A DNA stretch of 63,942 nucleotides, counting the filler, from Asterionella formosa (taxonomy: Eukaryota), in NCBI GenBank assembly GCA_002256025.1. It is 8 parts of 8 records of this genome, joined end to end, with 100 filler letters (N's around TTAATTAATTAA, not from the genome) between each part and the next. Parts side by side here need not be neighbours in the genome. Positions count along the whole stretch, not along the records: positions 8,445 to 16,765 come from NKIB01012278.1; 7 more parts are not named here. One strand, 5' to 3'. Positions 1,966 through 50,372 of this stretch are shown one piece after another. Position numbers and translations under genes: made by a program. Position 1 is the first letter of the stretch, and each line of letters begins with the position of its first letter. The notes below the pieces were generated by a model. The model saw only the letters and a program-made list of their open reading frames with translations, was not told where the DNA came from and searched no databases.

Positions 1966-1966
1966 A

Positions 1967-2845: not shown

Positions 2846-2876
<31 letters not shown>

Positions 2877-3470: not shown

Positions 3471-4329
3471 ACACATGCAGCCTGCGCTGTAGTCAATGTT
3501 TGTAAAAGCCTGGTTGTTTTAGCCTGTTTTCTAGAGGTAACTTCGTTTTTGAGTTTCTCCGAAAATATAGATTAGCTTTCCAACAAATGTCTATAGCACT
3601 TTATGTTAATCCTTGCATATTATGGAAGAATTTGCTATTGAGATACCCCTTTAGCACTATGAGGCACTAGAAAACCACTAGCAATGTTAAATCAATCAGC
3701 TGATTGACAATGGTGGTGCTTTTGGTGTTGTCAGTGAGCTAATAAAGAGGTTTAATGATAACAATCAATAGGAATTACTGATTAGATCAACACTATGTTT
3801 AAGGGCACCTTGACAAAACTGAGGGATCTATAGGCCATTTGCTAGGCGATTTGCATGCCCTAGAATTTCAAATATTGATCTCCAAACAAACAAAAACTAA
3901 GAACCACCAATAGAAATTTCCCATTTGTTGCTTCCCTCGAACCTTCTGATTTATGCATTGCTTGAAACGCTCACCCTTACCAACCGATTCCTTGTCTTGT
4001 CGATGTCTGACTTAAAAGAGACTTGTTGACTTTATTTATACCGGTTTTCTTTCAAGTCAACCCATTTCCCATATCTTCGTTTTTGCTGCTTCCACAAGAA
4101 AGAGGAGGAATGAAAATGGACAACTGAATGAGATTCTGGTGGTGGACAAAGATGAGCTACAATATCCGGTCTGCTGCTTGTCACTTATCGTTAGACGATG
4201 TCTCTGTTTGCTTGCCTCATCAGGGAAAACGTGTACACTTCCCTCAGCTCCAAGCGGCTACTACCTAAACATTCGTCTGTAAATAAAATTATCATGAATA
4301 TAGGATCAAGGGTATTGTACGCTAAGTGT

Positions 4330-6560
4330 CACAGGATTTTTACTTAAATGACAGTTTTTCGATCAAAAATATGATCAATGTATCATATAATTATGATCAT
4401 GCAGTAAACTTTTACCAAGCTTGAAGTATGATGATACTATCATATTTATAATACCAGTGCATCATATAAATAGTTAAACATGGTCATATGATGTGTATAC
4501 TTTTGTCATACATCTATCTTAGCATGATCGTAATTCTCATCGATATCACTGCCTAAAATAGGATGAAATTGATCGAAATTTAGAACTATATTTAGCTAAG
4601 AATGGTTTTATGTTTCTATATCTTGAGTGGCTACAGAATTTTCTACAATTCTCTCATCGCAATGATTGGTGCTTTCACTTCTATCCTCTCCCCGATCCAA
4701 TTCTGAAGGTTGTTGTACTGGTTGCCTTGCCGTTGTTCCCCTGCCTGCTTTGTTCCATTTACTCCTGACGGTTCTGAGTTTGCATTCACGCATTTTCCTA
4801 TTACTATTGAATCCGTTTCTTTGTTCCAATCAGCCGTACTAACAAAGAGAAGCAATTCATTGTTAGCTGTTCATGTTTTGCTTACACAACAACATTAGTT
4901 TCGTTTCTATCTTGCTTTAGTAACTGATGCATATTTCTGTAGAAGAATGTGTCAGTCGAAGATTGAATGAGAAGCAAAGTATCGATCAATAAATGGGCTC
5001 CAACACTGCTGTTTGTAAATTACAATTACTTTTTGTCTGCCATTATCCTGAAAGAAGCAACACTAATGTGTCAGTTTTTCTAACAGTTGTGGATTGATCC
5101 AAAGATGGCTGATAGCACTTACCGATTTCTTTTGTCCACATTGATGGTTGGCCAGCCACCAAATCGAAAAGGAGCTATTGAATCACTGAAAGGGGACGAG
5201 TAATTCCGTATTTCTAATCCAAGCAATTGATCATCTTGGAATTTTCTCTTGACAAACCGTGATGCTATGCACAGCTTGTTGATTCCGCCCTTCTCCATCA
5301 TATTCACTCATTCTTAGCTGCCTGGTGTATCATTGTGCTGTATTGTCACTTCAGTTTTTCGCATCATGTGTTGCTTGGGATCCTTCATTTCAGGAAGTGG
5401 ATGCATGAAAGGAACATGAAAGGCATTGTCTCTTGACTTACCATCAATTGATTCCGCCCTTCTCTTCTAAGCTGCAAGTATCATTGTGCTTTATTATCAC
5501 TTTCGTTTTCCGCGCCATCATGTGTGATGATCCTTCATTTCAGGAGCAAAGTGTATGCATGATGCCATGAATACATATATATATAAAGATTTGTAAAAAG
5601 TTTAAATTTATATATGGTTGAACATTTGCATAGTTTTAAACACACTAATCATACGGTCCATCCTGTGTCTACTAACATCAATTTTGATTATACAAAATTC
5701 AAATATATACTACAATGCATGATGAGTTCCCAGTTTTCCACGACCTGTTGAATTTTTTCAATTTGTTTTGTGACAATTCTTGTACTCTAACTACAAGTCA
5801 GTGGCTGATTTAATTAAGCCCCCTATTAAACGGTAGTCATCACCAATTTTTCAAATGGTCGAAATCATACATTTATGCATATAGACGTATTGACCAAAAT
5901 TCACATGGCCTACCGATAGTACTGTATACTTGCTGGGAATTATTTCTATCATTGAAATGCCACAATAGTGCAGCGGAAAACTGAATATGCTTATGTGTTT
6001 AGTAGGATCATTTGATAATATTTTTAAGATCAATTGATCCTGATTCTTGAAAAGAAATTTTGATCTTTCATTTTCTTATCAATCAATTCTCCAGTGACAG
6101 ACCGGAAAAATTTGTCTTGTGTGATGAGGCATTTTGTTTTCATTGGATTTCTTTTCAAGCTCTTAACGGATTGCATACGAACATAATGTGCAATGTAGAT
6201 GATGATTCATCGAAGACATATGATGACTTGAACGACAAATGAAGATTTCATCACAAACACTTGTTCCTCTCCACATGGCTGCTTTGTTGTTGTTGCAAGA
6301 ATCAGAGTGAGGACTGGCGAGGATGATGAGCCAAACCACATTACTTTAACTGGTACATTATCCTACCAAGAAATTTAAATAAAGGAAACTAAAAGAAACA
6401 ATACATATAAAAATTAAATTTCCATAGTCAAAAGGGTTACTATTTAAATTACGAGGGCATTTATCACAATTATTAGATGATATAATGAAAAATTATGATC
6501 AGATGATCATAATCTTATGATGCATCGTAGGAATATGATGGTTTTTATTTGCAGACATTA
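4330..6560. repeat. Unclassified dispersed repeat with ATGAT/ATCAT-rich blocks at both ends
   Basis: About 6240-6530 aligns in reverse with about 27180-27480 (e.g. 'tagtcaaaagggttactatttaaattac'). 4350-4550 resembles the reverse of 28400-28590. Boundaries are approximate. Confidence 0.55.
5280..5562. repeat. Diverged tandem duplication with a unit of about 170 bp
   Basis: 'gattccgcccttctc...gtatcattgtgct...gatccttcatttcagga...atgcatga' occurs at about 5281 and about 5450. Confidence 0.8.
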
Positions 6561-6900
6561 CAATCATCTTGTGTGATGTTACAAGACAAGACAACAACTG
6601 ATCAAGAAGAAAAGCGAGAGGACAAGGATGACAATGCCCAAAATGTGAGCTGTATGTTATAATGTAATATTTGTATTGTCAATTGTACTAACTTCATCAT
6701 ATCTATGAAGGTTGCTAAATAAAAATTATCAATCAATTCTTAGAGTACGTTAAAGCTATCCAATAATCGCACTCATGCCCAAATAAATGAATACATGGAC
6801 ACAATTAGTACCAGCTTTATTCGTCCGTACGGTACAATGGGACCTGTCTTTTCTTCAGCCGCAGCCCCTGGAATCCTAGGGACTACATGAAAAAGGCAGG

Positions 6901-6968
6901 TGGGGAATGCAGGAATCAAACCTGCCACCGCATCACCAGGAGTGCTAACCACTAAGCCATTCTTCCCC
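6901..6968 (-). ncRNA. tRNA-like Pol III unit (tRNA pseudogene or SINE-like head) without a canonical anticodon arm
   Basis: The minus strand reads GGGGAA..TGGCTTAGTGG (A box)..GCAGG-TTTGATT-CCTGC (T arm and B box, one mismatch)..TTCCCCA (acceptor stem). TTTTT follows at 6894-6890. Confidence 0.6.
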
Positions 6969-7023
6969 TACGAAGGGTTCTAAATACAATGAATCTCCTA
7001 CATTATGAAATCATGGCGATTTG

Positions 7024-7150
7024 CGATTTTCGACTTCTTCATCTCTTAGTGAATCTTGGCAGCATTCCAGACTTTAGCTTTCTCAAATGAAAAAAGCTGA
7101 AGTTTGGAATGCTGCCATAATTTGCTGAGAGATGAAGAAAATAAAAATCG
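7024..7150 (+). repeat. Long imperfect inverted repeat (47-bp core stem)
   Basis: 7035-7081 pairs with 7093-7139, with 7 non-Watson-Crick positions. Confidence 0.9.
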
Positions 7151-7584
7151 AAATGAGAGTAATTGACCCCTCATCCTCATTTTGCTTTGGTTGATTGGCA
7201 TCACGAGACAACATTATTTCATCTAAAAAATGTAAGACTGATAAGGATTCTTTTTGCAATGATTTTCAATTGCTCATTTTATCAACAAACATTCGAAGCC
7301 CAAAAGGTTGCATGTCCATGCTTTGACCAATGACTGTTTCTAAGCACATGGAAAGGATGTCCAATGATGAAAGCTCCTAGTAGCAATATATTATTTAGAC
7401 CTGAAAAGTAATTGTTTGATTTGTCTGAATTAATAGAATTGCCTTTAAGCCTAGTAAGAGCCAGGGGTTCAAAATTGCTGATATCAGGTAGTCCTACTCC
7501 GGAGTACTTACTTAGTTTGTATAAGTACCCTATAATAACCTATTACAGTTTACACTTGGTATAGAATATCCATTCGTCAGTCTG

Positions 7585-8344
7585 TTATGGGCAGCAGGTC
7601 AGCCATCAGTTCAGTTCAACAGGACAAAGTACCAGGATTTGACCCAAACCAAATGTCACTTTCAATGTGAATCAATTCCATGACCAAGCTGCTGACCATT
7701 GGCGCAGCCGTAATGATATCCTCCACAATGGTATTGGTCTCCTTGCTGAAGTCACCAAATATTATCGGGTTTCCCATTCCTACTCGATTATCAACCTTTT
7801 GACAGCATGGGATAATCTCTTCCAGAAGGATAAAGAGACACCCCTCCAACTTTCATTTCGTACCCGTGAACTTGTTTCAAAGGTAGCTGATGCTGGCCAA
7901 TTATTCACAGAACCATTCATTTGTTATCGTTTTCTATTGGCTCTTGGTCCTGCCTTTCATGCCTTTGTCCAACCTTACCTCTTACTCCAGAAGGACATCA
8001 CCACCATGACCCTGGTCACACTGACTGCTTCTGCCAAGACATACACTGACACCCCTGGGTTTGACTCCTCCAAGATGGCTCACACAGGTCACCGTTCTGC
8101 TGCTCCTTCCTCCTCTGATTCCTCCTCACCCTCCCCAACCGCATGGATTGGGTCTACTTCCTTCAATACCTCCCAGGCCAGGGCTATGCAGCAATTCAAA
8201 TGCCCCATTCATCGCTGCAATCATCATGACCTTGCTGCATGTAGTCTGGTTACCTCCCGCTTCTCCATTGTTCCCAAACCTCTCTCTTCCTCTGGTGGTG
8301 GTCCCCCCTCCACCACCCCATGCCCCATCCCATCCTCCTCTACC
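7585..8344 (+). mobile_element. Copia-type gag region (5' part of an LTR retrotransposon), cut by the contig end
   Basis: PBS-like GTTATGGGC at about 7584. ORF 7667-8344 has a gag-like 'QKDKETPLQLSFRTRELVSKV...RFLLALGPAF' stretch and a CxxHx4Hx4C knuckle 'CPIHRCNHHDLAAC'. Confidence 0.6.
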
Positions 8345-8444
8345 NNNNNNNNNNNNNNNNNNNNNNNNNNNNNNNNNNNNNNNNNNNNTTAATTAATTAA
8401 NNNNNNNNNNNNNNNNNNNNNNNNNNNNNNNNNNNNNNNNNNNN
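8345..8444. other. Artificial contig-joining linker (N44-TTAATTAATTAA-N44). Also at 16766-16865, 25179-25278, 33584-33683, 41982-42081, 50373-50472 and 58765-58864
   Basis: The same 100-nt construct, with stops in all six frames, recurs every ~8.4 kb. Confidence 0.98.
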
Positions 8445-8683
8445 GTTCCTTCACAACATGCTGGACTTCTCCATGTGAAGAGTCAGAGTCCCGTGCTCGT
8501 TCTTCCTCCTTTGCTTCATCTGCAAAAGGCAAGCTGGCATCAATACCCTTCTTTTGGGCAGTGGGAGAAGGTTTGTGTGCACTTACGTGATCACTTTGGC
8601 TGCCTTTCTTGATATCCTTGCTATCGTCGTTCATAATTCTGATTGAATATTGTGCTTAACGTACAGAATAAGCAATTTTAATA

Positions 8684-9740
8684 AGTTGGAAATTTGCGAT
8701 TACGTACATAGATTCCTTGTCGAAATCGCTAAATATATATATAAACACCCTTTGTCGCTGTATGTATATATACCCTAAAAATACGATTGACATATATGCA
8801 TAGACACTCTGTACTCCGATTAACGATTTTATATGCTATGCATTGAATCCGTTCCTATACATATTTAGATTTTAGATCGCTGTATTCTACAATCGGTTCT
8901 CCGATCGACGACCAAGTATCATGTATACGACCTGGCGGTTCGGCAAATATTTGAAAGTGCACCCAAGGAGCGGTACGCGTACCGGTATGTCCAATGATGA
9001 TCATCTACTGGTACCCGTAGTGAATATAGCACCGGACTGTCAGTACACCCAAAAATATGTTACATGTTAATCCAATGTGGCCAGCGTGGGTTTGCACGAC
9101 CTCGCAAACCAAGCCAATCAAACAGAGGAATGTACTTCATGCTCACCAATCATATTATATATGTGGAAGCGGGTACTTACAATGGAATTTTTTGGACAGG
9201 AGATTTTAGGACTAAAAATTCAGGCACACGACTTCCATTCCAATGATGACGTTTCGGCACTTAATAACTCTGATTCCGATATTTTGGCGACCGTAGAAAA
9301 GACCGATTTTGTCGAGTTTTTGGACGACGATAGCTAAACGTTGGCTGGGTCTGAAGGCGATTTAGATACATAGGTAACTTTCAAATAGCATCAGTATATA
9401 ACTTCTGGCGAGAAACTGTAGAAAGGAACTTGGTTTTTTTACTATGCCAAATAAACAGATTTCCCCCAAAATTTCGAGTCTTTTTAGCCTAGTTAAAAAA
9501 CCGAAGTTCCTTTCTGCAGTTTCTGACCAGATCCTATATACTGACGATATATAGAGTGAACCTACACCCCTACTTTGTCCGAAGACTGTATGTAAGCATA
9601 TGGAAAGGGTGTGTATTGGTGAAAGCTCCGTTGAGCGTTATACATATTTAATTTGAATGTGAAAAGTATGTGTTTGATTAGTCTGACTCAATATTATTTT
9701 ATTAACCCTACCTCGAGCTAGGGGTTCAAATGCAGCAACC
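8684..9740 (+). mobile_element. Non-autonomous Kolobok-like element, copy B (left end missing)
   Basis: Ends ...GGGTTCAAATGCAGCAACC followed by TTAA (9741-9744). Collinear with 32638-33583. Internal hairpin at 9404-9531. Confidence 0.8.
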
Positions 9741-9744
9741 TTAA

Positions 9745-10425
9745 GTAGTCTCGTCTATCCATCCCAATTCTATCCAAACATTCTGTAAAGACTGAATCGT
9801 ATGCAGGATTACCAGATCTAAGTAGAGCAGGATGACCCTTGTGGGTACTGCATCCCAAATACCACTCATCAAAGGGCATATCACGACAATCCTGACAAGC
9901 CTGTATGTAGTTACCAGTTTGATTGTGAGCTTTGTGAATGCGCCATACTGCAGTACGAAATCCCTTACGCTTTTCAGGGGCATTCCAATCCCCACGACAT
10001 TTTATAGGATGCCCAGTGACATCAAGCACTTCCTTTCCACCAAGATCCAATAATGTCATACTTGATGCATTGTATTTCCACCATACATACATTACAAGGG
10101 ATTCTACCTTCATCGATGGACAGTTTGCAGGACATTTGTCCCTAAGCATCAACAGTGACTCATAATCACCAATCAACTTGAAGAATTTTGTAAGACCACA
10201 AAAGTGAACCTCATAGCTTATCTCTGTACGATACCGGAGTGCACTTATAAAAGTCAATTTTGCCAAACGTCGGTCAACAGATGTCTTTTTCAATTTGTCC
10301 AAAGCATTCAGAATTCCTTGGGCTACTTTATCTTCAATATCTGCTGGTATATCTTTGGCATATATGACATCCCGAGGTAGATTGGCAAGCTTTTTAGTCT
10401 AACCGCGTGTATTCTTCTTACTCAT
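9745..10425 (-). pseudogene. N-terminal part of a putative tyrosine-recombinase (Crypton-like) transposon ORF
   Basis: ATG at 10425 (MSKKN..), then an early stop and frameshift, then 'IGDYESLLML..CPSM..C.G.W..P..F.TAV..IH..CQDC..GC..H..R.GNP'. I recall this pattern from stramenopile YR-element proteins. The catalytic domain is not present. A second copy of the 5' region lies at 31125-31475. Confidence 0.5.
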
Positions 10426-10605
10426 TCTGACAATTCAAGTATATGGATGTGAAATCGGCAACTTATGTGAACAAATTATTCAACAAATATTAGCAGACAG
10501 TTATTTTGAGGATCACATGTATTCCTATACAGTTATGTATATTAATATAGTTGCACAGATTTGATATACCGGTAGTCTGGTGCAATTCAGGTTACTCTAA
10601 GTAAA

Positions 10606-10650
10606 GTGGTGCAATTGGTGGTGCAATTGTGGTGCAATGGTGGTGCAAAT
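10606..10650. repeat. GTGGTGCAA(T) short tandem array upstream of the putative YR ORF
   Basis: Four copies here, and three in reverse at 31208-31238. Confidence 0.8.
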
Positions 10651-11392
10651 GCCGATGGGCAGTTGAATTTACTACCGTAATAGTTTTCCCTGTTTCATCC
10701 TGTTTTGGGAAAAGTCCCGGTAGTCTACCAGCAAGTTGCGGTCATTTTGCTTAGTAAGGTTCCTGCATTTCAACCCTTAATTAGAGGTAGGGTTAAAGAT
10801 ATAATATTGAGTCAGAGTATTCAAACATGACACACACTTCTTATGACTAAAACATAAACGTGTATCGCTAAACGGAGCTTTCACCAATATACACCCTTAC
10901 CATATGCTTAGATACCTGGTACCTGGTACCCGGTACAGTCATTGACAAAAGTACGTACAGGTCAATGTACGGGCAAATTTCCACTGATTTGAATATTTCA
11001 AAAGCAGGGAAACATGTCATTCAAAAATAGCTCCTATAAATTCTTACCCGTAAAACCTGGTGTCTCGTACCCCTCAATGTACACAGCCACGACTGATTTT
11101 ACTTAGAGGGGAGTACAAGACATTGGAACTTTTTTGATTGTCAAACTTTATGAAAAAACCCCAACTTCGCCACCGTTTTCTCCATAGTCTAAAACATAAA
11201 TAGCAACATTAAAAGATATATTGTTTTAGGTTCAATCGGCTTCTAGAATCAATTGAATTTCTATTTTTGGAGCACTGGCGCGCCCGAATTTCGTCATGAC
11301 TTCAACAGAAATTTCTAGAGTGTATACAATTTGTACCTGATTCTACGATGTAATAAATTGTGTAGGTTCTACAAACCTAATCGTGATAGAAA

Positions 11393-12115
11393 TTGAGGTT
11401 AGCCAACCAAATCATTTTGTACGGAATCATCAGCATGACAACGAAAAAATATCTCTGCATCAGGCAAAAGAAAAATATTGTTGCGGAAGCATACAGCAAG
11501 CCCAACAATATCAAGGCAACCACCAGAGCATATTTGGTTCAGCCAAAGCAGACCCGGAGCTGGAAGTCCATGCTGGATGGTGCAATGGTTGTGGTTCCGG
11601 TGGAGGTGATGGAGATTACTCTTCAGGAAGGAAGTGTGATTCAGATGCAGGTGTTGATGAAAAAAATCGCTCACTTGTGCCGCTCTCCAAAAAGTGCTGC
11701 TGATTTTGAAGGATTGAAGACTCTTTTCGACCAGTTGCGGCTTCAAGATAGGGTCTGCACCACCAGTATGCTCAGTGTTGAGCTTAAGAGGCAACCTGGG
11801 AACGAAAATGTGTCACTGAAGGCACTTGAAAAACGGATCAAGCGCTGGCTTCCCCGTATGGACAGTGTAATTAGGCGTGTGACTCGTGTCGCCCAAAATA
11901 CAAGGCTGGATCAGGAGACAATTCAAGATTTTGTTTCCTATGTCAACAATCAAACTGCTGCGTTCGAATTTCCTGCTGGAAACATTGTCAATATTGATGA
12001 GATGAACATCAATTTTGACATGTTTGGATCAAAGACTTTGGCAACCCGAGGCGAAAGGACCATTGGGCTTCGAACAACAGGAATTTGGATTGAATTATTT
12101 GATAATATATTTTAA
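11393..12115 (+). pseudogene. pogo-like transposase (HTH/CENP-B region and start of DDE domain), 3'-deleted
   Basis: 'RIKRWL...IRRVTRVAQ' and 'IVNIDEMNINFDM..KTLA.RGERTI..RTTG' are typical of DDE_1 pogo transposases. The ORF stops before the remaining catalytic residues. Confidence 0.85.
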
Positions 12116-12318
12116 CATTTAGTTTTAGTGAAACAATTATTATCGTCAATTAGATTCAGGATGGCAAACCCTAATAGGCAAATAAATTAAGCTGATGACT
12201 ACAAAAAACCCAAAACGGAGTGATTCTAATGCTGAAAATGCTAATTTCTAATACTTTTATTAATATTCTAGTGTAGATTGGTTGAAGTATTCAAAGGCTT
12301 GTCCAGTTTTCGTAACAT

Positions 12319-12717
12319 CTATTCCTGAATCTGGATGTCCTCAAGAAGCCGGAATGAACAAACTCCAAGGTTATTGTGGCTTTTTGCCCTTTTGGCAGCA
12401 CTTTCACTAGAGTCATAGAGTTCAATAACTTGAGCGAACTTGTCACTTGTTTTCTTCAAAGCTGCAATATTCTCGCCAAGGAAACCAACCATGCACAATT
12501 CCGTCCCATCAAGGATCAGAACAGCCTTGATACCTGCCTGATCAACTCCATCAATCGGTACCACTGCTGCCTTGAACCAAACACAATCATTCGGCCTTAC
12601 AATTGCCCCACAGCAGGCATGCTGCTCACAGCTTCTTCCATTGGCGGTACCTCTGAGGCCAAGGATTTCGCCATCACGAATGTCATCCGCAATTATCATG
12701 TTGCCTAAATGTGACAA
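12319..12717 (-). CDS. Transposon-borne hypothetical protein (~125-132 aa), possibly HIRAN-like
   Basis: Open ORF inside the pogo TIRs, convergent with the transposase. Motifs 'EILGL....GRSCEQHACCG', 'C.VGFL' and 'AQVIELY'. The likely ATG is at about 12699. Confidence 0.65.
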   Translation of the reverse strand: MSHLGNMIIADDIRDGEILGLRGTANGRSCEQHACCGAIVRPNDCVWFKAAVVPIDGVDQAGIKAVLILDGTELCMVGFLGENIAALKKTSDKFAQVIELYDSSESAAKRAKSHNNLGVCSFRLLEDIQIQE

Positions 12718-13298
12718 TATTTTACAGGTGATGATACTTTACAGGGAACAGTAGGGTACCGGTAATATACGAAAATACATACCAATAAATAGAATACGTT
12801 TATGTTGTGTTATTTTTTCTGTACATAGGAAATATTTGGGAGTGTTGCGCCAGATGTACAAAGGGGGGTACAGGTATCTGGGGGGATACGAGACACCAGG
12901 TTTTACGGTAGCTAGTTCCAGGGAATTTCGGCAACCCTAAGCAATACTTTATTTTTTTTACTTAGGGTTGAAATACAGGAACCTTAAATATTAAACAAAA
13001 AAATTTAACTGATAATCTGCTGAGAAAATAGGAGCTAAATAACTCTTTGGTTTAGCAAGATTTCGTCAACCACGCACTTGCAGTTATAAACTGGTACTTG
13101 TACAGGTACCTGGTGGTACCAGCACCACCAGCTAGGGAGGGTACAAAGAGACACCTGCTACAAGTTCTATGTGGGTGTTCTTTGATTTTCCTATCCTATA
13201 TCGTTCTATATACTGTATAGTAGAACACCACGTACGCACGCACGCAAGCACACACTGAACTCCTCCTACCTAGTACAGTAAGTACCAGGTACCAAGTA

Positions 13299-15793
13299 CG
13301 ACTTAAAAACTGTAAGCCACCGCTATTTTAGTCTATCTTTCGACTAAAAATATTTATATAATTCAACGATCAAAACTTGACGCAAGTACAAAGCTTATGT
13401 TAGACAATGCTCTCTGCTATACTATTAAGGAATCAGTTTTGATTCAGTGTATCTAGCCATGAAGAAATAAATTTTAAGTCACTAAGATTATTGCATAGCA
13501 GTGGCTTACAGTGCATATTTTTCTATCTGTACATGAATATATTTCCCCCCCAAACCGTGTTTATTTTTACTCCGTTAATACTACAAAAATTATTTTCTTA
13601 TTACTTTACGTTTTACACTTTTGCAGGGCAGCATCATCGTTGGAGAATTCTTCTGATGCATTACATTAATCTCGAGCTTCTTTGCATCCAACTACTTGCT
13701 TGCAGAGTCTCAAACTTCATCACGGAATGGTGGATCGGCAGTAGCAGTTGTAGAAGGAGAGGGAACAGCAACAGGAGGAGGTGCAGTAACATTAACCACA
13801 GCAATAGGAGGTGTATGGAGAGGGAATGGCGGCTGCTGGTCACCACGGTGATTGGTGTCGTCGAATCTTGTAATCAGAGCTTGCCTTGTTTGTGGAACCA
13901 GCAAATCACCTGATTGTTTTTACCAACGCACCATTAATTTCAATTCTGGCACAGACATCTGTTCTTTTGTTTTGTTCTGTTCTGATCCTTCAATGTAAGA
14001 ACTTTTCCGCAAAGTGTATTGAATTCTTGTTGCCTTTTTGTTTCTTTTGTACTAATGACAATGTCTGAAATTCGCTTCCGTTCCAGTGTAGCAGCAAGAA
14101 TATTTGGCCCAAGGGCTAAGGTTTGTGCAGAGGCCAGTAGTCCTGCTGTTATCCTCTTCTTGTGTCACTCAATGTGTAAATCCGCTGTCTCCCTTCTCTT
14201 TCTAGCTTGGGCCTCCCGGTCGATTCCATTTCGCACATCTTCGCATTTGCAAAACTCGTTAATTCTTCCAACAATTGTTCCAGCAAAGCCAGTTTGGAGG
14301 TTTAACTCATCAGGAGGGAGAATGGCAGTCTCTGTGGGCGCATTGATGTTCTGTTGTGTCGTGGTTGGGTTAGTTGAATCTCAGGGTGAAGCAAGACATT
14401 ATAGTTCAGGGGATACCATCCTTGTTCATAAATTGCTTTCTTGTTTGTGACAGAATTTGCAGGTATTCCATTCCTTTCCTTGGCAGCATCAATGATCAAA
14501 GAAACTGTTCCTTTGGAGGTATGTTTGTTCTTATTTTTGCTGTCTAGCATTTTATTCATGTACTCATCTGTTGCTTCACTTAATGCATTTTGCATCTGGG
14601 ATTTGTTGCTAATGGTGGCAGCAATGGTGGCACCTTTGGGCCGTCCACCAACAGTTGTACAGTTGTACTACTCATGTCCTCCTTGTTTGTTTTTGTTGTG
14701 TTTGTATTTGCCTCCAAACTTCCCCAGGTAAGCACACCATTGTTTCCAGTTTCATATGCCAAAGTGCCCATTGTATACTGACTATCATAATGCTCACTCA
14801 CACCTTCATTGTTGTCATCTTCTTCCTCCTCGACAATTTCATATGAATTATGAATGAGATTGCTGGGAAATAACAAGGCAAAGCTGCCATCAATATTCAA
14901 GAATTGGGGTTTAGTAGGGCCACAATGGTCAGGTGTCAATGTAGACACCATGGTTGCAGTTGATGGTTGAAAGAGGGACAAACCAGAAGTAGTATACATA
15001 CTAGTAGTACTAGACTTAACTTCTAGTTTAGCACTTTGTTATAGTTCATTCTTTACTTGGTTAACAGATATCCAAGGGAAAATGCATTGCTTAGCTGATA
15101 TTGTCCTAGAAATAGCACCATAAGGCATTTTTCCACCATGGTTAGCCTTCTTAGCTTCTAGCTCCCTAATCACATTGTTAAGACAAATCTGAACACTGAC
15201 CAACTCTTCAGGAGACAATTTCTTTCGAGGCAAGGCCTTGCCTTTGTCGAGGTGTTTTCGAGGTCATGATGTTGGTATTGTGATGGGTGATGGGTGATTG
15301 TTGTGTTTGCATTTAATTTTTGTACTCATAATTTGGGCGCGCCAGGAATTCCTATTTGACGTTTTCCATTAGTGAATTTATCTCTTTATTATGGCGCACG
15401 AGCGAAAGCGCAATGACGTCGTAGCCATATTAAATAAATTTTAGAGGATACTATATTTTAGAGGATACTATATTAGTTTTCTAGCGGAGGAATATTCGAA
15501 TAACTGTATATGTATATAAAAGGCGATGCTTGCTCAATCGAGTAACGTCAAAATATCCAATTTTCGCAATTTCACGTCAACAGCAACCTTTGGGCGATAA
15601 TACCTAATTAACAATGTACACAATGCAACAATACAAGTACAGAATTATTTACTTGCTATATAAATCTGAACAACTCGTTCGTGACAATAAATAGGGTATC
15701 TTGTAAACTATGTTCAAACCGTGCGTTTACTCCGTTTAGCGGTGACTTACAGTTCAGAAGTTGCCATAGCGGTGGCTTACAGTTTTTAAGTGG
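13299..15793 (-). mobile_element. Second TA-flanked pogo-like transposon, internally deleted
   Basis: TIR C(C/G)ACTTAAAAACTGTAAGCCACCGCTA at both ends with TA on both sides. Fragmented minus-strand ORFs run 15233-13710 ('GRPKG', 'GWYPLNYNVLLHPEI', SAP-like C-terminus). No DDE core is visible. Confidence 0.85.
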
Positions 15794-15794
15794 T

Positions 15795-15883
15795 ACCAGG
15801 GACCAGGGACCAGGGACCAGGGACCAGGGACCAGGGACCAGGGACCAGGGACCAGGGACCAGGGACCAGGGACCAGGGACCAG
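15795..15883. repeat. (ACCAGGG)n heptamer tandem repeat, about 12-13 units
   Basis: Directly visible. It abuts the TA target duplication of the transposon. Confidence 0.95.
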
Positions 15884-16698
15884 TAATTAATCAACAGCCA
15901 AGGAGATCATGGTACCAGGTACCGGTACCTGGTACATGAAAAGAAACTAAGCTATCAGCTACCAGGTACCAGGTACTGATACCGCCCGGTATCCTAAACT
16001 AACTGGTAGCTGGTACCAGTAAAGTACCTGGTACCGGAATACCGGTTGCGTACCTGTAGGTAAAACCGTCCTTCCCCGGTCAGCCAACCCAGCAGCTGCA
16101 GTACCAGGTACCAGTAGCAGACAATGGTGGACTCGGAGTAAGTTGTTGGTCGTCAAGGGAAGAATTCCCCTGAATTCGCTCTTTACTCGTTTTTGCACAA
16201 CATTCGCACTTGAAATTGCGCATAAAATCCACAGCCACAGGACGCTTTTGATGGTGGCGGGGTGTGACAAAATGAACCAGCAAAAGATGCTCGATGCTCG
16301 ATGCTCGATGCACGATACAATGGCAAGTCTGAATTTCTCGTTTGAATCCTTCCATGAATTCTTCCATTCACTCAAATTGCTGCGCTAACTCCTCCTCCTT
16401 GTCCTGTCGACTTGACAGAAGCTGCTCTGATGCTACCGGTACCTGGTAGTATACCAAAGTCGAATACGCGAGCGTGCGGTAACATCAGCTCTGCAAAAAA
16501 GCTTCCATGAGAGTTCTCGATATTTTGTGTCCACACAATCCACTGTCCATTGTCTGTATCAAAATGGTTCCATTATATTTCCATCATCGGGTAGCGAAGT
16601 GTCCAATGCCTGTGCCTCCTATCAACAACTGTTCAACAAATATGTAATTCAAAGTTGGAACATTGGATGATTTTTATTACGAGATGATTATTTCGTGA

Positions 16699-16765
16699 GA
16701 TCAGATCTGATCTCATTTCATCTGATCTGATCTGATCTCATTTCATCTGATCTGATCTCATTTCA
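16699..16765. repeat. (GATCT)/(CATTT) pentamer-based microsatellite at the contig end
   Basis: Directly visible. Confidence 0.85.
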
Positions 16766-16865: not shown

Positions 16866-17170
16866 TCCTCCTATAATGAGCCGGACGATATAAGCTATTT
16901 TGGAAGACCGATAGTTTGAAAATGAATGATCATGGTTAAAAACCTGTGATCAGTAAGTGTGAGATAGACATGGGTCTATCTATGATTGCATGTTTCTAGA
17001 AATGCAAACAGCATTTAGAGAATAGTTTGTTTGTTTGTTCAAACAGAACAACCTAAACTAGATTAGTAAAGTCACAATAAGAATATAGAAACGGAAAGAG
17101 AAACGAACATCTCTATCTAAAGTCTTCTTTGTCTAATGATATAGATCTATCTAAAAGGTAATACTTTCAC
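16866..17170. repeat. Dispersed repeat, near-identical to 46436-46750 (part of the Kolobok-like element's 3' region)
   Basis: 'cctataatgagcc...gaagaccgatagtttgaaaatgaatgatcatggttaaaaacct...ggtaatacttt' is shared. Confidence 0.9.
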
Positions 17171-17401
17171 AGTATCCGTGGTGCAACACAATGCATGAAC
17201 AGAACATTTTAACACTGGAGGGTACCAAGGTTGAGTTTTTTAAACTCAAGCTATGCATTATACCAGTAACAAGTTAGTAACTCATGTTGTCCTCCACTAT
17301 ATTGAACCCCATTTATCAAGTAACACTCCCCTCTTCAAAATGAATGTTGCTGTGTTCTACCCTAAATGTTTATACTTACTATGTTTAATAGTGGTCTCCT
17401 C

Positions 17402-19381: not shown

Positions 19382-19930
19382 TTATCTCCTTCGCCTTCTT
19401 GGCTGTTCCGCCCTTTCAATCTGAAGAGGCGCATCCATTGCTGGTGACTCATTTTCCTGACGAGCAATGGTCCGTGCTAGCTCCCACATTCCTCCCTTGT
19501 CTAACCCACCCTGCGACAAGGAGGCTGCTAATGCAACTTGGCGCCTTGTTTCGGCATTCATTTGGAATTTTAGATTTTGGCCAGTCTCGTGGAGAATCCA
19601 TATTCGCAGCGACTCATCACTCCACTTTTGTGGCTGCTCGATAACTTTGGTTTGACCATTGACTTGTTGAATCGACTCAAATGCTTGACGAATTCGAGTA
19701 AACTGATCTCCAGAGGACGGACACTTGGATGTCGAGGTGTCGGGATGATGCTCAAGGGCTAGTTTCACAAATGCAGCCTTCACTTCACTGTAAGGAGAAG
19801 CTCGGGGTATACCCAAGACATGAAATGGACAAGAGACCGAGGAAAGGAGGCGGATTCCTTGCCGTTGAATACCGGTAGTGCAGGGACCTTGAATCATACG
19901 TGACAGCAAAAGCGATACTAATGATGCCAT
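19382..19930 (-). CDS. DnaJ-domain protein, probably mitochondrion-targeted
   Basis: J domain 'PFHVLGI...EVKAAFVKLALEHHPD...FTRIRQAFE'. Arg/Ser/Leu-rich N-terminus. Confidence 0.9.
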   Translation of the reverse strand: MASLVSLLLSRMIQGPCTTGIQRQGIRLLSSVSCPFHVLGIPRASPYSEVKAAFVKLALEHHPDTSTSKCPSSGDQFTRIRQAFESIQQVNGQTKVIEQPQKWSDESLRIWILHETGQNLKFQMNAETRRQVALAASLSQGGLDKGGMWELARTIARQENESPAMDAPLQIERAEQPRRRRR

Positions 19931-20738: not shown

Positions 20739-22400
20739 ATGAGTCTCAAGGTACAAAAGCAGATTTACTGTGGCCTTAAAGTATTTGTGCTGACAGTGTT
20801 TATGATACTGTTGTTTCTTAGCAGTTGGCTCAGCAGCAGCAGTAGCAGTACCGGTAGTAACAGAACAACTTATGTGGTTTCTATGCATCAAGATGAAAGC
20901 CATGCACCGACACTCCCTGGTGCTTCTGGAAGCACAACATACAACGACGTTACCCACCTGAAAGTTATGACTGGAGAACTTCCAGGATACACTGGATGGG
21001 CTAGACCAGACCGTACATTGGCAGGATACTTTAAAGTGGTGGAACCTCCAAGCACCCATGACAGTTTTCAATTCGTTGTGCGCCTGAATTGCACGCACCC
21101 ACTTTGTCAACATGGCGGATCCAAGTTCTATGTAAGATCCTATGGGCCATCGGTCGTGGCGGGAAGGACAACAGACCACAGAAATGGAAGCTATGACATA
21201 TTCTGGCCAATAGGGACAGAACATGAACAATTCACTGTGGAGGTTGTTTTAACATTTTCATCAACGCCGGAATATAAGAACTTTCCCCTCCGTGATGCTG
21301 CTGCTGCGCCTGCATACGAAGGACATTTAATACCGGGATTCCCCTTGCTGATCACGTCGAACAAAACGATTATAGCAACACCAGACCGTATCTGTTCCTC
21401 CAAGGACTTATATGTTTCCTCTTCCCTTGGAGGGTACAGTAAAGGACGTTGGGTAGTGGTTGACAGAGTTTCAAATCCAACTTATTTTTCAAATGAAACC
21501 GACGAGTTTTCGGTTCAAGGATATCAACATGGTGGAAATGCGTTGGGTATCTTCATGAACTATCAGCCGTACCATTGCCGTTTTCCCCTTTTATTAGATC
21601 AAGCCAAGAATTGGTTCCAGTCCTGCGAATCGCCAAAGAAACCAACACGTTTGATATTCATTGGTGATTCTGTCATGAAGATGCAAGAACATGCCTTCGT
21701 CAAGGCTAAGATACACGGCATCCAGATAACCTTCATCAAGACCCATACAGGTCTTCACAATATCCTCCACAATGTTGAATCGGCGCTTTCGGACAAAGCT
21801 TTGAGAGAAGAATCGGAAGATCTTATCATTGTTTTCAACAGTGGACTTCATGACATTGCACAACTCTGCAGCCCAATTTCGAAGCGGAGGCGGGATAAGA
21901 TGAATTTGGATTTGCACAATGAAAGGTGGTATTCATGCGTGGATCACTACAAACGACTTTTCACCAAACTTGCGAAAATTATTTCGACTTTTCCCGCGAA
22001 ACTACGAGTCTTCCAAACGACCTCAGCAGGATGGATGAAGTATGGAAACTATGGCTTTGCCTGGTCCCCATACAAGCAGCAAATCCTACCGTTTGATACA
22101 AGCTTTGCTGAACACTTTAATGAGATCGCCTTTGATGTTCTCAAGCCATTCGATAACATACAGATCGTTGATGCATATTGGCTCATGTTAGCTCGTCCCG
22201 ACAATCGAGAAGTCGACGCTGATCAAAGTATCGGGAAACACTTGGTCCACCCAGGAAATGAAGTGCTCGGCGCCCTCACTTCTATCTGGATGACAGTATT
22301 TGCGGAAACCTTGGATGAAAAGTGTTTTGCAGAATATGAAAAACAATATTCTCGCCGTGGTAGTCGAGGAAAGCGTAGTTCTGAAAACAAGTACCGGTAG
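20739..22400 (+). CDS. Type II membrane SGNH/PC-esterase (NXPE/TBL-like) protein, putative polysaccharide O-acyl transferase or esterase
   Basis: 553-aa ORF with an N-terminal TM helix, Ig-like 'TDHRNGSY', 'FIGDS', 'NSGLHD' and C-terminal 'LVHP'. Confidence 0.7.
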   Translation: MSLKVQKQIYCGLKVFVLTVFMILLFLSSWLSSSSSSTGSNRTTYVVSMHQDESHAPTLPGASGSTTYNDVTHLKVMTGELPGYTGWARPDRTLAGYFKVVEPPSTHDSFQFVVRLNCTHPLCQHGGSKFYVRSYGPSVVAGRTTDHRNGSYDIFWPIGTEHEQFTVEVVLTFSSTPEYKNFPLRDAAAAPAYEGHLIPGFPLLITSNKTIIATPDRICSSKDLYVSSSLGGYSKGRWVVVDRVSNPTYFSNETDEFSVQGYQHGGNALGIFMNYQPYHCRFPLLLDQAKNWFQSCESPKKPTRLIFIGDSVMKMQEHAFVKAKIHGIQITFIKTHTGLHNILHNVESALSDKALREESEDLIIVFNSGLHDIAQLCSPISKRRRDKMNLDLHNERWYSCVDHYKRLFTKLAKIISTFPAKLRVFQTTSAGWMKYGNYGFAWSPYKQQILPFDTSFAEHFNEIAFDVLKPFDNIQIVDAYWLMLARPDNREVDADQSIGKHLVHPGNEVLGALTSIWMTVFAETLDEKCFAEYEKQYSRRGSRGKRSSENKYR

Positions 22401-37082: not shown

Positions 37083-37766
37083 TCTCGAGATTTCATCGGT
37101 ATCATGATCATGTTGGCGATTGAAAACAAATAATGTCCGGTAATGAGAACAAGACCAGAGTTCTTCACGACGAAATATTACGGCGCACGCGATCACAAGT
37201 GCAAATTTGATTATAATCAGAATTGAATACCGGTATATAGATTGAATAGATTTTTTTATGAGGATATGTATACATTGGTATGTTGTCCATTTTTTGCTTA
37301 CCACTACATATATGTAGCAGCTATTCCATTTGATATATAGGCAGCCAGATGCTTGGATGTGTATATGTACATACTAACTACTGGTACCGGTACCTGGTAC
37401 CTGGTACCATCATACTATAAGCAGTGTTCGCAACGTGTAAGCTGTATTTCCCGTGCGTATTAACTATAATACGGTGGTATGTATTTATGTCAATAAAGCA
37501 GGTACGGGTATGTGGAATGATGTGAGTAAGCTAGGTAAGAGCAATATACCAGCTATGTATCTTTTTGGTGAGGAATAGCTTCCTCGTTTTGTCAATGCAT
37601 ATAATATTAGACAGCACTCATCCCATCAGGGACTGTGTCTACCTTTAATTTCTTTGGCCTAGAATGGGAACGATGAATTTCAAATGTACCTAATAAATAG
37701 ATATTAAAACTGGTTAAATATATTGCCAAGAATATCTTGAAGCAATCAAACGTTGTCCTTCATATT

Positions 37767-46155: not shown

Positions 46156-49100
46156 GGTATGATCTATATACAGATATGGTAAGGACCTCATTTTCTGGAG
46201 AGAAGTGGCAGTTATCCCTCTTGGAATCGTATCTATCCAAAAAATAGTCAAAAAAGGGGGCAATCAAGCTTTTAAAAAAATCTACGAGGGATAACTGCCA
46301 CTTCTCTGCAGAAGTTAACTCCTGACAATATGTTAAAGTGAGCTCATCTACGTAGTTAGGACTCGGAGTCAAAAAATTCGAATGAGTCAACTTTGATGTA
46401 CCAAGCTCTCATTAACCACACATTATACCTTGTTACTCCGCCTATAATGAGCCAGATGATATACTAAGCTATTTCGGAAGACCGATAGTTTGAAAATGAA
46501 TGATCATGGTTAAAAACCTATGATCAGTAAGTGTGAGATAGACATGGGTCTATCTACGATTGTATGTTTCTAGAAATGCAAACAGCATTTGGAGAATAGT
46601 TCGTTTGTTTGTTCAAACAGAACAAGAACCTAAACTAGATTAGTAAACTCACAATAAGAATATAGAAACGGAAAGAGAAACGAACGTCTCTATCTATACC
46701 GGTAGTCTTCTTTGTCTAACGATATAGATCTATCAAAAAGGTAATACTTTAACAACAATATAGGGTACACGACTATCTCTTTCAATCTTCATGAAACCCT
46801 GTAGATCTAGAGCAATCCTCCTCCAAAAAGTCGACCCGATCGGCTTTTTCAACAGTCGCCTAAATATTGGAATCAGAATTTGTACGAGTGAAGGGGTTCT
46901 TGTAGACATAGGAGTCCTGCGTAGGTATATTTGCCTCCATAATTCTCTGTACGAAAAGACTCCATGGTAAGTTCCCGTGTCACTACACATATTCTGCTTC
47001 GTTGAATTGAGTTCTCTCACCTACTCCAGACTGGCCGGAGTTTCCCAATCTTGTAAAATTACGCCAGGCATACTTAAACCACATGTATTAGATGCATCAG
47101 TAATATCAGTACCAGTACCAGTAGTTTCATGTTGGACCCCCTGAACAAGAGGAGGAGGTGCTCTTGTGTTGCTGTTGTTGAATGGACATCATGAATTCGT
47201 CCTTCTCAAATGATCGGTAAGTCCACAATGGTTGCATTTCTTGGTGGCAGGAGGTTGAACACTTCCTTCGGTATCATCTGTGACTGCTATACATGATTTG
47301 TAAGTTCTTCTTCTTTTCTTGTTGGCCTTTTCTTGTTTAATAATTTCAAATCTTGAACTATGGATTACTTCGCTTTGTTTGCGTTCCTTTTTGGGTTTTT
47401 CTTGTATTCCGCATCATTTCTTCGCTTTTTCTGCCATTGACTCCAAAAGGTTTGTTGTTGGGTTGGCATTGTCATTCCCAATCTTTCATATACATCTGAC
47501 ATGTATTTATTAGCGCTTTTTGTCTGTTGTCCTGCCACTGATGCTACTCGATAGACCAGGCTTTGGGAGCCAGCAAACATTTTGTTTTTTGGACAACGCC
47601 TTGCAACAGCATTGTTCATTGCCTCATTCATTTGTGTATCAAATGGGTGATGTAATGCTTTGAGTTTCTCACCTTCCATCCTTTTTCCAACATTTTGAAT
47701 TAACCAATCGAACATTTTCTTGTTGTCTTCAATGTTCCAATATTTTCCAGTACTGACATTTTTATTTGCTTTTGCGGGACACCATTCCGGATTACAGTGC
47801 TCGTGACTGTCAAATAAGTGTTGGATTGGCGCCACTGATGCTGATTGGAAATCTTCAAACAATGTTTTATGTCGATTTTTTAATGAAACAACCATAATAG
47901 ATTTTCAGTCACCGGCAGTCCTGTTTTGTCAATCTCACATCGGATTTTGGGCCTCGAGACAGCAAGAAGCAGGGGCGTAGTAATACGCGAGCTCGGTGAG
48001 AGGGATCTGATTAAAAAACCGGTTCTTTGACTTGTAATGGGAGGCATCCATGGTTTGCCTTTTTTGCGCCATTGTTCTTTTTTGGCCATTCATACAATGG
48101 ATTTTGAAGTTGTAAATCCTTATAAGATCATTTGCAGTTAGCTCTTTAGTGGAATCGTCATCACAGATCATTGTAGTGTAGAAGACTTGATAGTTATTCA
48201 CTGCCTTGATCACCATTTCAACCCCAGCATCAGGTTCCATTGACTTGGAACTACCCAATTGGTGATTCTTAGGGCGTTCATGAGGCTCGGCTGACGTAAA
48301 CCGCCGGGCAGCATAGTCACAAGTGTTGCATACCTTAGATTTTACGCAGTAGTCCAGTATCTTTTTTGAATAGCCTCCAATACGAAAAGCATGCCCGCTA
48401 TTCGAATTATATTTATTACCACTGGAGCGCTGCTGCCAGCCCATATCAAAACTTACAGTAAGTCTTGGCATGTTCTCCGGGATCACGCGTGCTTTTTCGC
48501 TAAGATTTTTCCACCAAGAATAGTCTTTCCCAATATCAGACCAACAAACATGATGTTCATGTACATCCAGAGTAAGTCGTACCTCCTCGTTCATTGCCTC
48601 TCTCGTTGAATGTTTTGTTACATCGATTTCAGCTTCGCCTATTAATTGCTCCAGTTGATTGAACCTTCCCTTCCTACTCCAGAAACCACTCTGCAAAGGT
48701 AAGGAAAGGGATGAGCATATTATATCAGCATCAACCGGACCCATTCCTGCTTTGTGACAACCAAGAACGAACATGTTGTTGATTGCAAAGTGTCCCATTT
48801 GATTGCTTTTCTCATGCATTCCTTCTTTGATTTTAATTGTTCATTGCCTATGATTGCAATGTTTAAATATTCGAAATATTCATTGATAAGATTGAACATG
48901 ATAGAATATTTTCAAAAATGTAGCATCTTCATCAAGTCGAAGCTGAACCAAGTCTGTTTCCATGTAATGCTCAACTAACTCCTCCATCTTGTCCCATCGA
49001 CATTGACACTCTGGGCATGCAAAGTCACAGCATTCGCAGAAGATGCGATTCTCACACCAGCCTGCTACTTCTGATTCGTCAATGACACGATCAACACAAG

Positions 49101-49505: not shown

Positions 49506-50372
49506 CCACTTAAAAACTGTAAGCCACCGCTACGGCCACTTTTGAACTGTAAGCCACCGCTAAACGGAGTAAACGCACGGTTTGAACTTATTTTACAAGA
49601 TACGCTATTTATTGTGACGAACGAGTTGTTCAGATTTATATAGCGAGTAAATACTTCCGTACTTGTATTGTTGCATTGTGTACATTGTTAATTAGGTATT
49701 ATCGCCCAAAGGTTGCTGTCGACGTGAAATTGCGAAAATTGGATATTTTCACGTTTACTCGATTGAGCAAGCATCACCTTTTATATACGTATCCAGCTAT
49801 GACAATATTCCTCCGCTAGAAAACTAATTTAGTATCCTCTAAAATTTATTTAATATGGCTACGACGTCATTGCGCTTTCGCTCGTGCGCCATAATAAAGA
49901 GATAAATTCACTAATGGAAAACGTCAAATAGGAATTCCTGGCGCGCCCGAATTATGAGTACAAAAATTAAATGCAAACACACAACAGTCACCCATCAACA
50001 AGAATTCAATACACTTCGCGGAAAAGTACTTACATTGAAGGAATAGAACAGAACAAAACAAAAGAACAGATGTCTGTGCAAGAATTGAAATTAATGGTGC
50101 GTTGGTACAAACGATCAGGTGATTTGCCGGTTCCACAAACAAGGCAAGCTCTGATTACAAGATTCGACGACACCAATCACCATGGTGACCAGCAGCCGCC
50201 ATTCCCTCTCCATGCACCTCCTATTGCTGTGGTTGTTGTTACTGCGCCTCCTCCTGTTGCTATTCCCTCTCCTTCTACAACTGCTACTGCCGAGGATCCA
50301 CCATTCCGTGATGAAGTTTGAGACTCCGCAAGCAAGTAATTAGATGCAAAGAAGCTCGAGATTAATGTAATG
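49506..50372 (+). mobile_element. Short deletion derivative of the 13299-15793 pogo-like element
   Basis: TA + CCACTTAAAAACTGTAAGCCACCGCTA. Matches the reverse of 15793-15295 joined directly to about 14030-13660. Confidence 0.9.

Follow-up and report, generated by a model that had tools for sequence, protein, structure and literature searches.

Palindromic insertions at TA sites in Asterionella formosa DNA as probable footprints of transposon excision

Why should one short palindrome rank among the commonest words in a stretch of eukaryotic DNA? The question is raised by a 63.9-kb window of the diatom Asterionella formosa (63,942 nucleotides, filler included; ~40% G+C), by which we mean the whole stretch analysed here, whose second-commonest 8-mer, level with (TA)n, is TACCGGTA. 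We consider it probable that this word and its nine-letter companion TACCWGGTA are canonical excision footprints of Tc1/mariner/pogo-type transposons, of the form TA + CC + GG + TA with an optional middle base, lying mostly in intergenic DNA at ~0.9 per kb. Unit counts, and the data on independence, placement and stacking, come from this one window. Expected counts were obtained from 100 dinucleotide-preserving shuffles and from Markov models of order 0-3. TACCGGTA occurs 34 times, against a shuffle mean of 0.31 (maximum 2) and Markov expectations of 0.34-1.78, and TACCWGGTA occurs 18 times, against 0.28 (maximum 3). Both words are roughly a hundredfold commoner than chance, an enrichment of the kind that an earlier note on this DNA had proposed to look for against a Markov background. 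The middle base is strongly skewed: TACCSGGTA is present 3 times, giving W in 18 cases and S in 3. Among the 136 strand-collapsed TA-N4-TA classes the sole outlier besides (TA)n is TACCGGTA (34 vs 0.59), and the 512 TA-N5-TA classes hold a single strong outlier, TACCWGGTA. The sites are independent, in that flanks are shared only by the tandem duplicates at 33021 and 33074 among the 55 units; once units less than 30 bp apart are merged there are 47 separate loci with unrelated flanks, the majority with a single unit, and the overall density corresponds to about one unit per 74 TA sites (55 units on 4053 TA sites). All but two of the one-mismatch neighbours of TACCGGTA exceed expectation as well, the most frequent being its CpG-transition product TACTGGTA/TACCAGTA (17 vs 2.55), and decay of inserted neutral sequence would give such a halo.

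Paralogous repeat copies within the window show how the motif comes into being. The comparisons put forward in the earlier note, at 10913, 10567 and 46697, all hold, the motif being in each case a 6-bp or a 3 x 7-bp insertion at a TA (Table 1). At 10913-10935 the sequence is TACCTGGTACCTGGTACCCGGTA; its three paralogues (9540-9760, 26300-26420 and 7300-7380, all on the minus strand) read GCTTA(G/C)A-TA/AA-CAGTC with no insert, and the 21 bases are therefore an insertion in one of four copies. The empty site is TA in two of these paralogues and AA in the third. For the unit at 46697 the paralogue reads CTATCTAAAGTC, with AA at 17113, so that one extra T>A change is required. The note had also proposed tabulating indels at TA among repeat copies, and here four paralogue alignments of at least 84% identity contain 9 indels of at least 3 bp, of which two, at a TA, match CCGGTA/ACCGGT exactly, and CCGTA and TAC account for one each, likewise at a TA; the 21-bp stack of 10913 falls just outside one of the four alignments. 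The latter two, at 10675-10679 (giving TA-CCG-TA) and 46462-46464 (giving TA-C-TA), are again insertions at TA relative to paralogues and may be non-canonical scars; TACCGTA is not enriched in the window (8 vs 5.08). Inserted bases enclosed by a duplicated TA, with a single TA in the empty site, are the mark of an excision footprint, and this arrangement was found.

Variation between samples leads to the same picture. The window was compared over positions 8445-16765 with assembled contigs of four public runs, X1, X2, X3 and X14, of which X2 and X3 belong to one study and X1, which may be the source sample, to a different one; such contigs give no read-level excision events or frequencies. At the plain TA of 16139-16140, an insertion in X3 converts GGAG-TA-AG into GGAG-TACCGGTA-AG and is not present in X1, X2 or X14, the X3 contigs being ~3% divergent from the window around 16137 (7 other letters in 211). 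The motif is polymorphic between samples and still arising. Many X2 and X3 contigs break at 10913/10930 and carry unrelated continuations (24-39 loose ends, agreement 0.36-0.41), which suggests that arrays like the one at 10913 exist at many other loci, although the contigs give no count of them.

What process would write such insertions? Excision footprints are known from Tc1/Tc3 and Minos as well as from Sleeping Beauty. According to PMC6943129, Tc1/mariner footprints consist of TA, the first or last 2-4 element bases and TA, produced by end-joining, and the Sleeping Beauty footprint is TAC(A/T)GTA, i.e. TACAGTA or TACTGTA. Compared with the footprints described there, the units seen here share the duplicated TA around terminal element bases, the palindrome with an ambiguous A/T centre and the proposed origin by end-joining of 3' overhangs. 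They differ in the spacing of the TAs, which is 4 or 5 bases (CCGG, CCWGG) instead of 3, in forming a natural layer of ~0.9 scars per kb as opposed to products of assays, and in occurring in stacks of up to 4 units. By analogy, elements of the Tc1/mariner/pogo superfamily with 5'-CC...GG-3' ends would insert at TA and duplicate it; when the element leaves, each flank would keep its TA together with a few overhanging 3' bases of the element; and end-joining would seal the break either as TA-CC-GG-TA (net +6 bp) or as TA-CCWGG-TA (net +7 bp), the latter containing an additional middle base, mostly A or T. Such scars should be nearly neutral in intergenic DNA, where they would accumulate and then decay by point mutation. 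Each scar would offer two TAs, and re-insertion followed by re-excision would add units and build stacks, while replication slippage could expand scar units into heptamer microsatellites. The mechanism itself is already known for the superfamily; the density, the uniformity and the stacking are unusual.

The window contains two elements that bear on this reading. The first, TE1, has 35-nt inverted repeats (11048-11082 and 12874-12908, 86%) with ends C-CCG...CGG, and TAs flank it at 11045-46 and 12909-10, so that inverted repeats and a TA duplication are both found. It is lodged in a small repeat whose paralogue at 32634-32780 displays the empty site TCT-TA-GTT, and several run contigs join 11044 directly to 12913, again an empty TE1 site. 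Relative to the empty paralogue there is one extra C on the left and there are 4 extra bases (GCTA) on the right; the right flank, 12909-12914, reads TA-GC-TA against one TA in the paralogue, possibly a scar of another type. The open reading frame (ORF) at 11390-12115 comprises the DNA-binding half and the first residues of a DDE_1 domain, the catalytic domain being otherwise missing, and it matches no Pfam family at threshold. A word-index search for longer relatives found none, whereas an exhaustive HMMER search did find them, yielding 319 relatives; the alignments cover residues 20-231, beyond which the full-length relatives scanned run on into DDE_1 (PF03184). This domain is present in 14 of the 14 full-length relatives scanned (14 of 150 listed) and begins where the TE1 ORF ends, and most of those scanned also have weak HTH_Tnp_1, CENP-B_N or Tc5-type matches ahead of it; a language-model (atlas) lead for the same ORF, HTH_Tnp_Tc5/CENP-B_N at 0.94, agrees with the DDE_1 relatives. 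To judge from its sequence, TE1 is probably a truncated pogo-type element, because full-length relatives of its ORF carry DDE_1. It resembles pogo/Tigger elements (DDE_1, PF03184; IS630-Tc1-mariner superfamily) in its inverted repeats, in the TA on each side and in the combination of helix-turn-helix (HTH) domains and DDE_1 in those relatives, and is unlike them in its truncation past the first catalytic-domain residues and in the 1-base and 4-base irregularities at its ends. A further ORF inside TE1 (12319-12738) has no Pfam match below E=0.09, and no intact transposase gene was found in the window.

The second element, TE2, is 2.5 kb long, ends in CCA...TGG and is flanked by a TA duplication (13297-98 and 15794-95), with an inner site ACTGTAAGCCACCGCTA doubled within each end. 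Its ORFs show no recognisable transposase and no Pfam match below E=0.09, and it is probably non-autonomous; its end sequence was not found in the prokaryote genome-bin contigs and viral contigs searched. The earlier note had described two pogo-like families that end in CCG...CGG and CCA...TGG and duplicate TA. Both elements are indeed flanked by TA and end as described, and the CCG...CGG element is pogo-like through its DDE_1-bearing relatives, but for the CCA...TGG element the pogo label finds no transposase to support it. The surroundings of TE2 are unusual: all three visible ends of its two copies abut a CCNGG-type unit (CCAAG-TA, TA-CCAGGG and CCGGG-TA), and ten units lie within 550 bp to its right. 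The position of TE2 inside a stack fits re-insertion into scars together with local hopping.

How well do the inserted bases match the element ends? Both elements start with CC and end with GG, and the 2+2 match is firm, but the 3+3 products of the TE1 and TE2 ends, TACCATGGTA and TACCGCGGTA, are absent from the window (0 and 0), which would favour 2-nt overhangs with an occasional extra base. As third end base TE2 has A and TE1 has G. The CC(A/T)GG units can be read as 3+2 products of the CCA...TGG family, as 2+2 products with an added base, or as the outcome of annealing between 5-nt CCWGG overhangs of an element not seen in the window; a 2-nt overhang with one added base would fit the middle A or T at least as well as the third base of TE2 does. 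The wider proposal that the motifs are footprints of TA-targeting transposons, keeping bases from both ends, thus stands as far as enrichment, derivation by insertion at TA, polymorphism and a CC...GG core like that of both elements are concerned, while excision as the maker of the insertions is what we infer from these features.

The placement of the units relative to genes agrees with the behaviour of neutral insertions. Host coding sequence holds 3 of the 55 units, compared with 12.5 expected by length (P=0.0005) or 8.9 by TA sites (P=0.016), and transposon ORFs hold none (P=0.0002). The three coding units (Table 1) are all of the frame-keeping 6-bp type and lie at protein ends; this frame bias is not significant, the chance of 3/3 being 6-bp units being ~0.24 given 34/55. 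A 99%-identical orthologue from another assembly (P0001) keeps both codon-level motifs, with no polymorphism at those two sites, and a metagenome scan with the protein of the neighbouring gene gave 2 distant relatives only (40% and 35% identity), both without the motif. Most of the remaining units are intergenic and lie 50-600 bp upstream of start codons. Stretches of 9.0, 7.1, 5.0, 5.6 and 4.5 kb are free of units, among them 1-8979 and 39565-46697, and four of the five (all except 57370-61854) contain retroelement or Mutator ORFs or long host genes. G is enriched at -1 and -2 of the units, an observation confounded by stacking.

Prokaryote genome bins and viral contigs were scanned for the stacked pattern TACCWGGTACCWGGTA. 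The matches were mostly chance or lay in bacterial and phage contigs with dense ORFs (cover 0.8-0.98) and are unrelated to the diatom. In genomes or bins of Bacteroidota (L052, L028, L047, L072, L076 and L082) we observed intergenic TACCWGG / GGTACCW heptamer arrays, three of which stand behind one shared 20-nt left flank in the genome of a Litoribacter isolate (L052); ORF cover of the array contigs is 0.68-0.98 in five of the six and 0.54 in Litoribacter, and these arrays are a different matter from the diatom scars. The sole eukaryote-looking match was a contig (L062) with an ORF cover of 0.17. It comes from bin G001, which is labelled a Sulfitobacter metagenome-assembled genome yet includes many small, low-coding, eukaryote-looking contigs of 45-50% G+C (L062, L127-L146). 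In the whole bin TACCWGGTA occurs 139 times, compared with 35 for the reversed control, and is concentrated on small contigs; TACCGGTA shows no overall enrichment (52 vs 174 for a G+C-rich control word). In 21 small contigs picked for the motif (113 kb, 45-50% G+C), the counts are 40 for TACCWGGTA (1.06 expected) and 13 for TACCGGTA (1.83 expected). TACCWGGTA is the commonest non-homopolymer 9-mer of the small contigs, in which the Sleeping-Beauty-type scar word TACAGTA/TACTGTA is also frequent (50 vs 17.8 expected). No TA/CC...GG element was found in the 113 kb; a search of the bin for pogo-like, DDE_1 or mariner transposases found none, but its positive controls also failed, so that this result is uninformative. 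The only repeat family found in the 113 kb is an unrelated inverted-repeat family of ~105 bp (L129, L132, L139 and L141) with ends TTACGGGGGTCCATAGTTA (TTACGGGGG-type), which may be a Harbinger-type miniature element that duplicates TTA/TAA. These data hint that the phenomenon extends beyond a single species, and the enrichment in G001 feeds a functional-palindrome explanation equally.

Several observations weigh against excision footprints as the explanation. In the copies and samples compared, no site was seen to hold an element in one and a scar in another, which leaves the link to excision circumstantial, the nearest evidence being the position of TE2 between scar units. For two of the three paralogue comparisons there are just two copies, with polarity assigned by parsimony, and the 4 extra bases at the right flank of TE1 are unexplained by the model. 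The units outnumber the resident copies of CC...GG elements 55 to 3, the eukaryote-like contig set of G001 is enriched for TACCWGGTA yet yielded no such element, and the position upstream of start codons would also be expected of a promoter motif. The CC or CCA overhangs of TE1 and TE2, moreover, are not self-complementary, so that a very uniform product is not obviously expected from them; the products resemble self-annealing CCGG and CC(A/T)GG overhangs, as would be left by an element whose ends are CCGG or CCWGG.

This last point defines the alternative that survives best, although we regard it as rather unlikely: the scars would have been left by a mariner-like family absent from the window, with self-complementary CCGG... 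or CCWGG... ends and a 4- or 5-nt stagger, TE1 and TE2 being bystanders. The uniformity of CCGG and the W-centred CCWGG (18 W vs 3 S) would then reflect annealing of palindromic overhangs with a central mismatch, much as in the TAC(A/T)GTA described in PMC6943129, and the 3+3 products of TE1 and TE2 are missing. However, no CCGG- or CCWGG-ended element is present in 62.6 kb of the window or, for the second organism, in 113 kb; a stagger of 5 nt would exceed the 2-4 nt that PMC6943129 quotes for the superfamily; and TE2 lies within a stack of units. When the window was scanned for additional inverted-repeat elements of the form TA-CC...GG-TA, 23 pairs came back, none of them real and all motif-to-motif matches.

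One could also speculate that the palindrome is abundant through function, as a transcription-factor site or core promoter element under selection. An 8-9-bp palindrome that lies mostly in intergenic DNA just upstream of genes, is missing from the retrotransposon-rich stretches 1-8979 and 39565-46697 and is over-represented in G001 too has the properties that such a view calls for. It is nevertheless an improbable explanation. In transposon-derived paralogues the motif arises by 6-7-base insertion with TA duplication and not by substitutions; units also fall within coding sequence and 3' regions, and one coincides with a stop codon; they form stacks with a period of 6/7 bp and are accompanied by decayed variants; and binding sites are not expected against transposon ends at every visible TE2 end. 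Later co-option of scars as binding sites could still have occurred.

The stacks raise the question of whether a transposon is needed at all. There are 18 arrays of at least two TA-C..G units, 14 of which contain at least one canonical unit (CCGG, CCWGG or CCSGG). Coincidence of units on one TA would be expected by chance only ~0.4 times (55 units, 4053 TA sites), and stacking therefore requires a cause. Neighbours are identical in three unit pairs (at 10913, 15960 and 37379); the other pairs differ, often in length, with CCAGG, CCGG and CCTGG in succession at 15913 and CCGG beside CCTGG at 16434 and 37379. Where adjacent units differ in length, separate events are a simpler explanation than slippage, and for arrays with unequal unit lengths stacking by re-use of one TA is likely. 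Slippage also expands such units, as is evident from the perfect 12.7-copy heptamer array at the right end of TE2, whose unit ACCAGGG lacks the TA and differs from the scar unit CCAGGTA by T>G, and repeated re-use of one TA is to that extent only partly supported. Several heptamer arrays of 2-4 copies are present as well. The proposal of the earlier note that the same TA is reused repeatedly is thus plausible, given the neighbours of unequal length and the position of TE2 within a stack, but it does not account for every array. That no transposon was involved, and that a chance palindrome was spread by slippage or local duplication as in a hexamer or heptamer microsatellite process, is very unlikely in spite of these heptamer arrays and the three identical adjacent pairs: there are 47 loci with unrelated flanks, mostly single units; empty sites hold TA alone, which makes the CCGG new sequence and not a copy of a neighbour; most adjacent stack units differ, many of them in length (CCGG beside CCWGG); and identical head-to-tail units, the signature of a slippage array, were found only at 15795-15883 and not across the loci overall.

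Microsatellites can arise from transposon-derived sequence, in that a short unit supplied by the element is then expanded by slippage. The (ACCAGGG) array at the TE2 end resembles such cases as a mobile-element unit expanded by slippage, and is unlike them in that the seed here would be an excision scar, compared with a poly-A tail or an internal element repeat. Near the 10913 stack we observed inverted arms of ~156 nt (9588-9743 and 10755-10915), flanked by TA, in a structure spanning 9591-10912 around an ORF at 9718-10398 on the minus strand (226 aa; no Pfam match). Part of this structure has a paralogue at 31136-31475, and the stack coincides exactly with its outer TA. A 53-bp tandem duplication at 33020-33122 contains three motif units and is rich in CCGGTA, CGGTA and TACGGGTA pieces.

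An assembly, adapter or sequencing artefact is a negligible explanation, since a 182-nt X2 contig equals 15884-16065 with 0 differences and spans two stacks, contigs from runs of other studies repeat stacks exactly, numerous further contigs stop in comparable arrays whose flanks are unrelated (10913/10930), and the 99%-identical protein of another assembly retains both codon-level motifs. Footprints of hAT/Transib-like elements, which pass through hairpins, are flank-derived palindromes, and elements of this type were rejected as a source, as they would add such palindromes and not a constant CCGG. Crypton (tyrosine-recombinase) elements, known in a diatom and bearing direct-repeat termini such as TATGG (PMC3212892), were likewise rejected: their recombination takes place at a core that already exists and brings in no new bases.

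Table 1 Motif units, stacks and transposable elements in the window (positions count along the whole stretch)
Feature	Position	Strand	Remarks
Single TACCGGTA	10567..10574		6-bp insertion relative to its sole paralogue, 31110-31500 minus (TGATA-TA-GTCTGG, ~31270)
Stack of three units, TA-CCTGG-TA-CCTGG-TA-CCCGG-TA	10913..10935		21 bp inserted at one TA of a repeat family; absent from 3/3 paralogues
TE1, truncated pogo-like element	11047..12908	+	Inverted repeats, TA on both sides, pogo-type ORF
TA-CCAGG-TA-CCAAG-TA	13283..13298		Directly adjoins the left end of TE2
TE2, 2.5-kb element	13299..15793		28-nt inverted repeat CCACTTAAAAACTGTAAGCCACCGCTA, begins CCACTT; left end changed to CGA by mutation
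Perfect heptamer array, (ACCAGGG) x12.7	15795..15883		Begins at the right TA of TE2
Mixed stack, TA-CCAGG-TA-CCGG-TA-CCTGG-TA	15913..15934		Identical in X2 and X1 contigs
Stack, TA-CCAGG-TA-CCAGG-TA	15960..15975		From the array listing
Plain TA in the window, TACCGGTA in run X3	16139..16140		GTACCG inserted behind 16137; 1 contig, depth 410.1 of 410.1
Stack, TA-CCGG-TA-CCTGG-TA	16434..16448		From the array listing
TACCGGTA in N-terminal presequence region of a host ORF	19870..19877	-	..GPC-TTG-IQ..
TACCGGTA in host coding sequence	20849..20856	+	SSSSS-TG-SNRT, after a signal-peptide-like start; 6-bp type, frame kept
TACCGGTA giving the last two codons and TAG stop of the 20849 gene	22392..22399	+	..NK-YR-stop
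Stack, TA-CTGG-TA-CCGG-TA-CCTGG-TA-CCTGG-TA	37379..37406		From the array listing
Single TACCGGTA	46697..46704		6-bp insertion relative to paralogue 16866-17200 (site ~17113-17121)
TE2 deletion copy, cut by an N mask	49506..50372		Left flank CCGGG-TA before the CCACTT end

Beyond these features, the window carries intron-poor host genes (aldehyde dehydrogenase, class-III aminotransferase, FTR1 permease and others) and Copia-type and Mutator-like elements. A Copia-type retrotransposon at 42038-46050 (RVT_2, zinc knuckle), a second Copia fragment at 151-1491 and a Mutator-like transposase at 47365-48840 (PF20700, E=1.4e-36) are all without motif units. The protein encoded at 20739-22397 is lineage-specific: it has 300 relatives, all named ones from diatoms, in the genera Cylindrotheca, Stephanocyclus, Seminavis, Nitzschia, Thalassiosira and Aulacoseira. 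In a search of public runs, the window was found in an 'algae metagenome' run at 0.81 of the sampled words and in freshwater metagenome runs at ~0.3. Blocks of 44 Ns occur in seven regular pairs with 12 bases within each pair, at 8345-8444 and at six places ~8.4 kb apart (16766 to 58864), and a block of 680 Ns lies at 53821-54500; these N blocks are masks, not sequence features.

Excision footprints are textbook material, but they have usually been studied at single loci or found to be rare and heterogeneous. The nearest genome-wide comparison is with rice Mariner/Stowaway elements, for which PMC4423477 gives 94 putative excisions among 487 polymorphic loci, with heterogeneous repair (deletions of mean 18 bp, fillers of mean 13 bp) and 8 'perfect' excisions only, leaving just the duplicated target. 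Judged by PMC4423477 and PMC4561436, the two systems would be alike in that excision of DNA transposons supplies small indels across the genome, mostly close to genes and seldom within coding sequence; they differ in that the product in A. formosa is uniform, being the top non-microsatellite 8-mer, as opposed to the heterogeneous repair that PMC4423477 describes in rice. A full-text literature search, outside which most subscription papers lay, found no report that treats the motif as a scar or a promoter element of diatoms, nor one of footprints in diatoms.

If the motifs are excision footprints, one uniform scar would be the leading non-microsatellite 8-mer of this DNA, marking about 1 in 74 TA sites. 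Transposon excision would then be a major writer of small insertions, responsible for 2-3 of the 9 indels of at least 3 bp in the closest paralogue pairs, and sequence alone would suffice to count how often a transposon family had excised in the past. Diatom promoters, protein termini and microsatellites would all have been shaped by scars, which would be useful as strain markers and a reason for caution in motif discovery in diatom promoters. A more tentative extension, possible though in our view doubtful, is that scars are the preferred landing pads of the transposon, re-insertion into either TA of a newly made or an older scar adding one 6-7-bp unit per cycle in the manner of a ratchet. 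Were that true, a highly mobile pogo/Tc1-type element would be confined to harmless promoter-proximal sites, and its by-products would be stacks, seeds of heptamer microsatellites, dipeptides at protein ends and an 8-9-bp palindrome in promoters; the scar layer would then constitute a readable history of cut-and-paste transposition in diatoms, and possibly in other algae.

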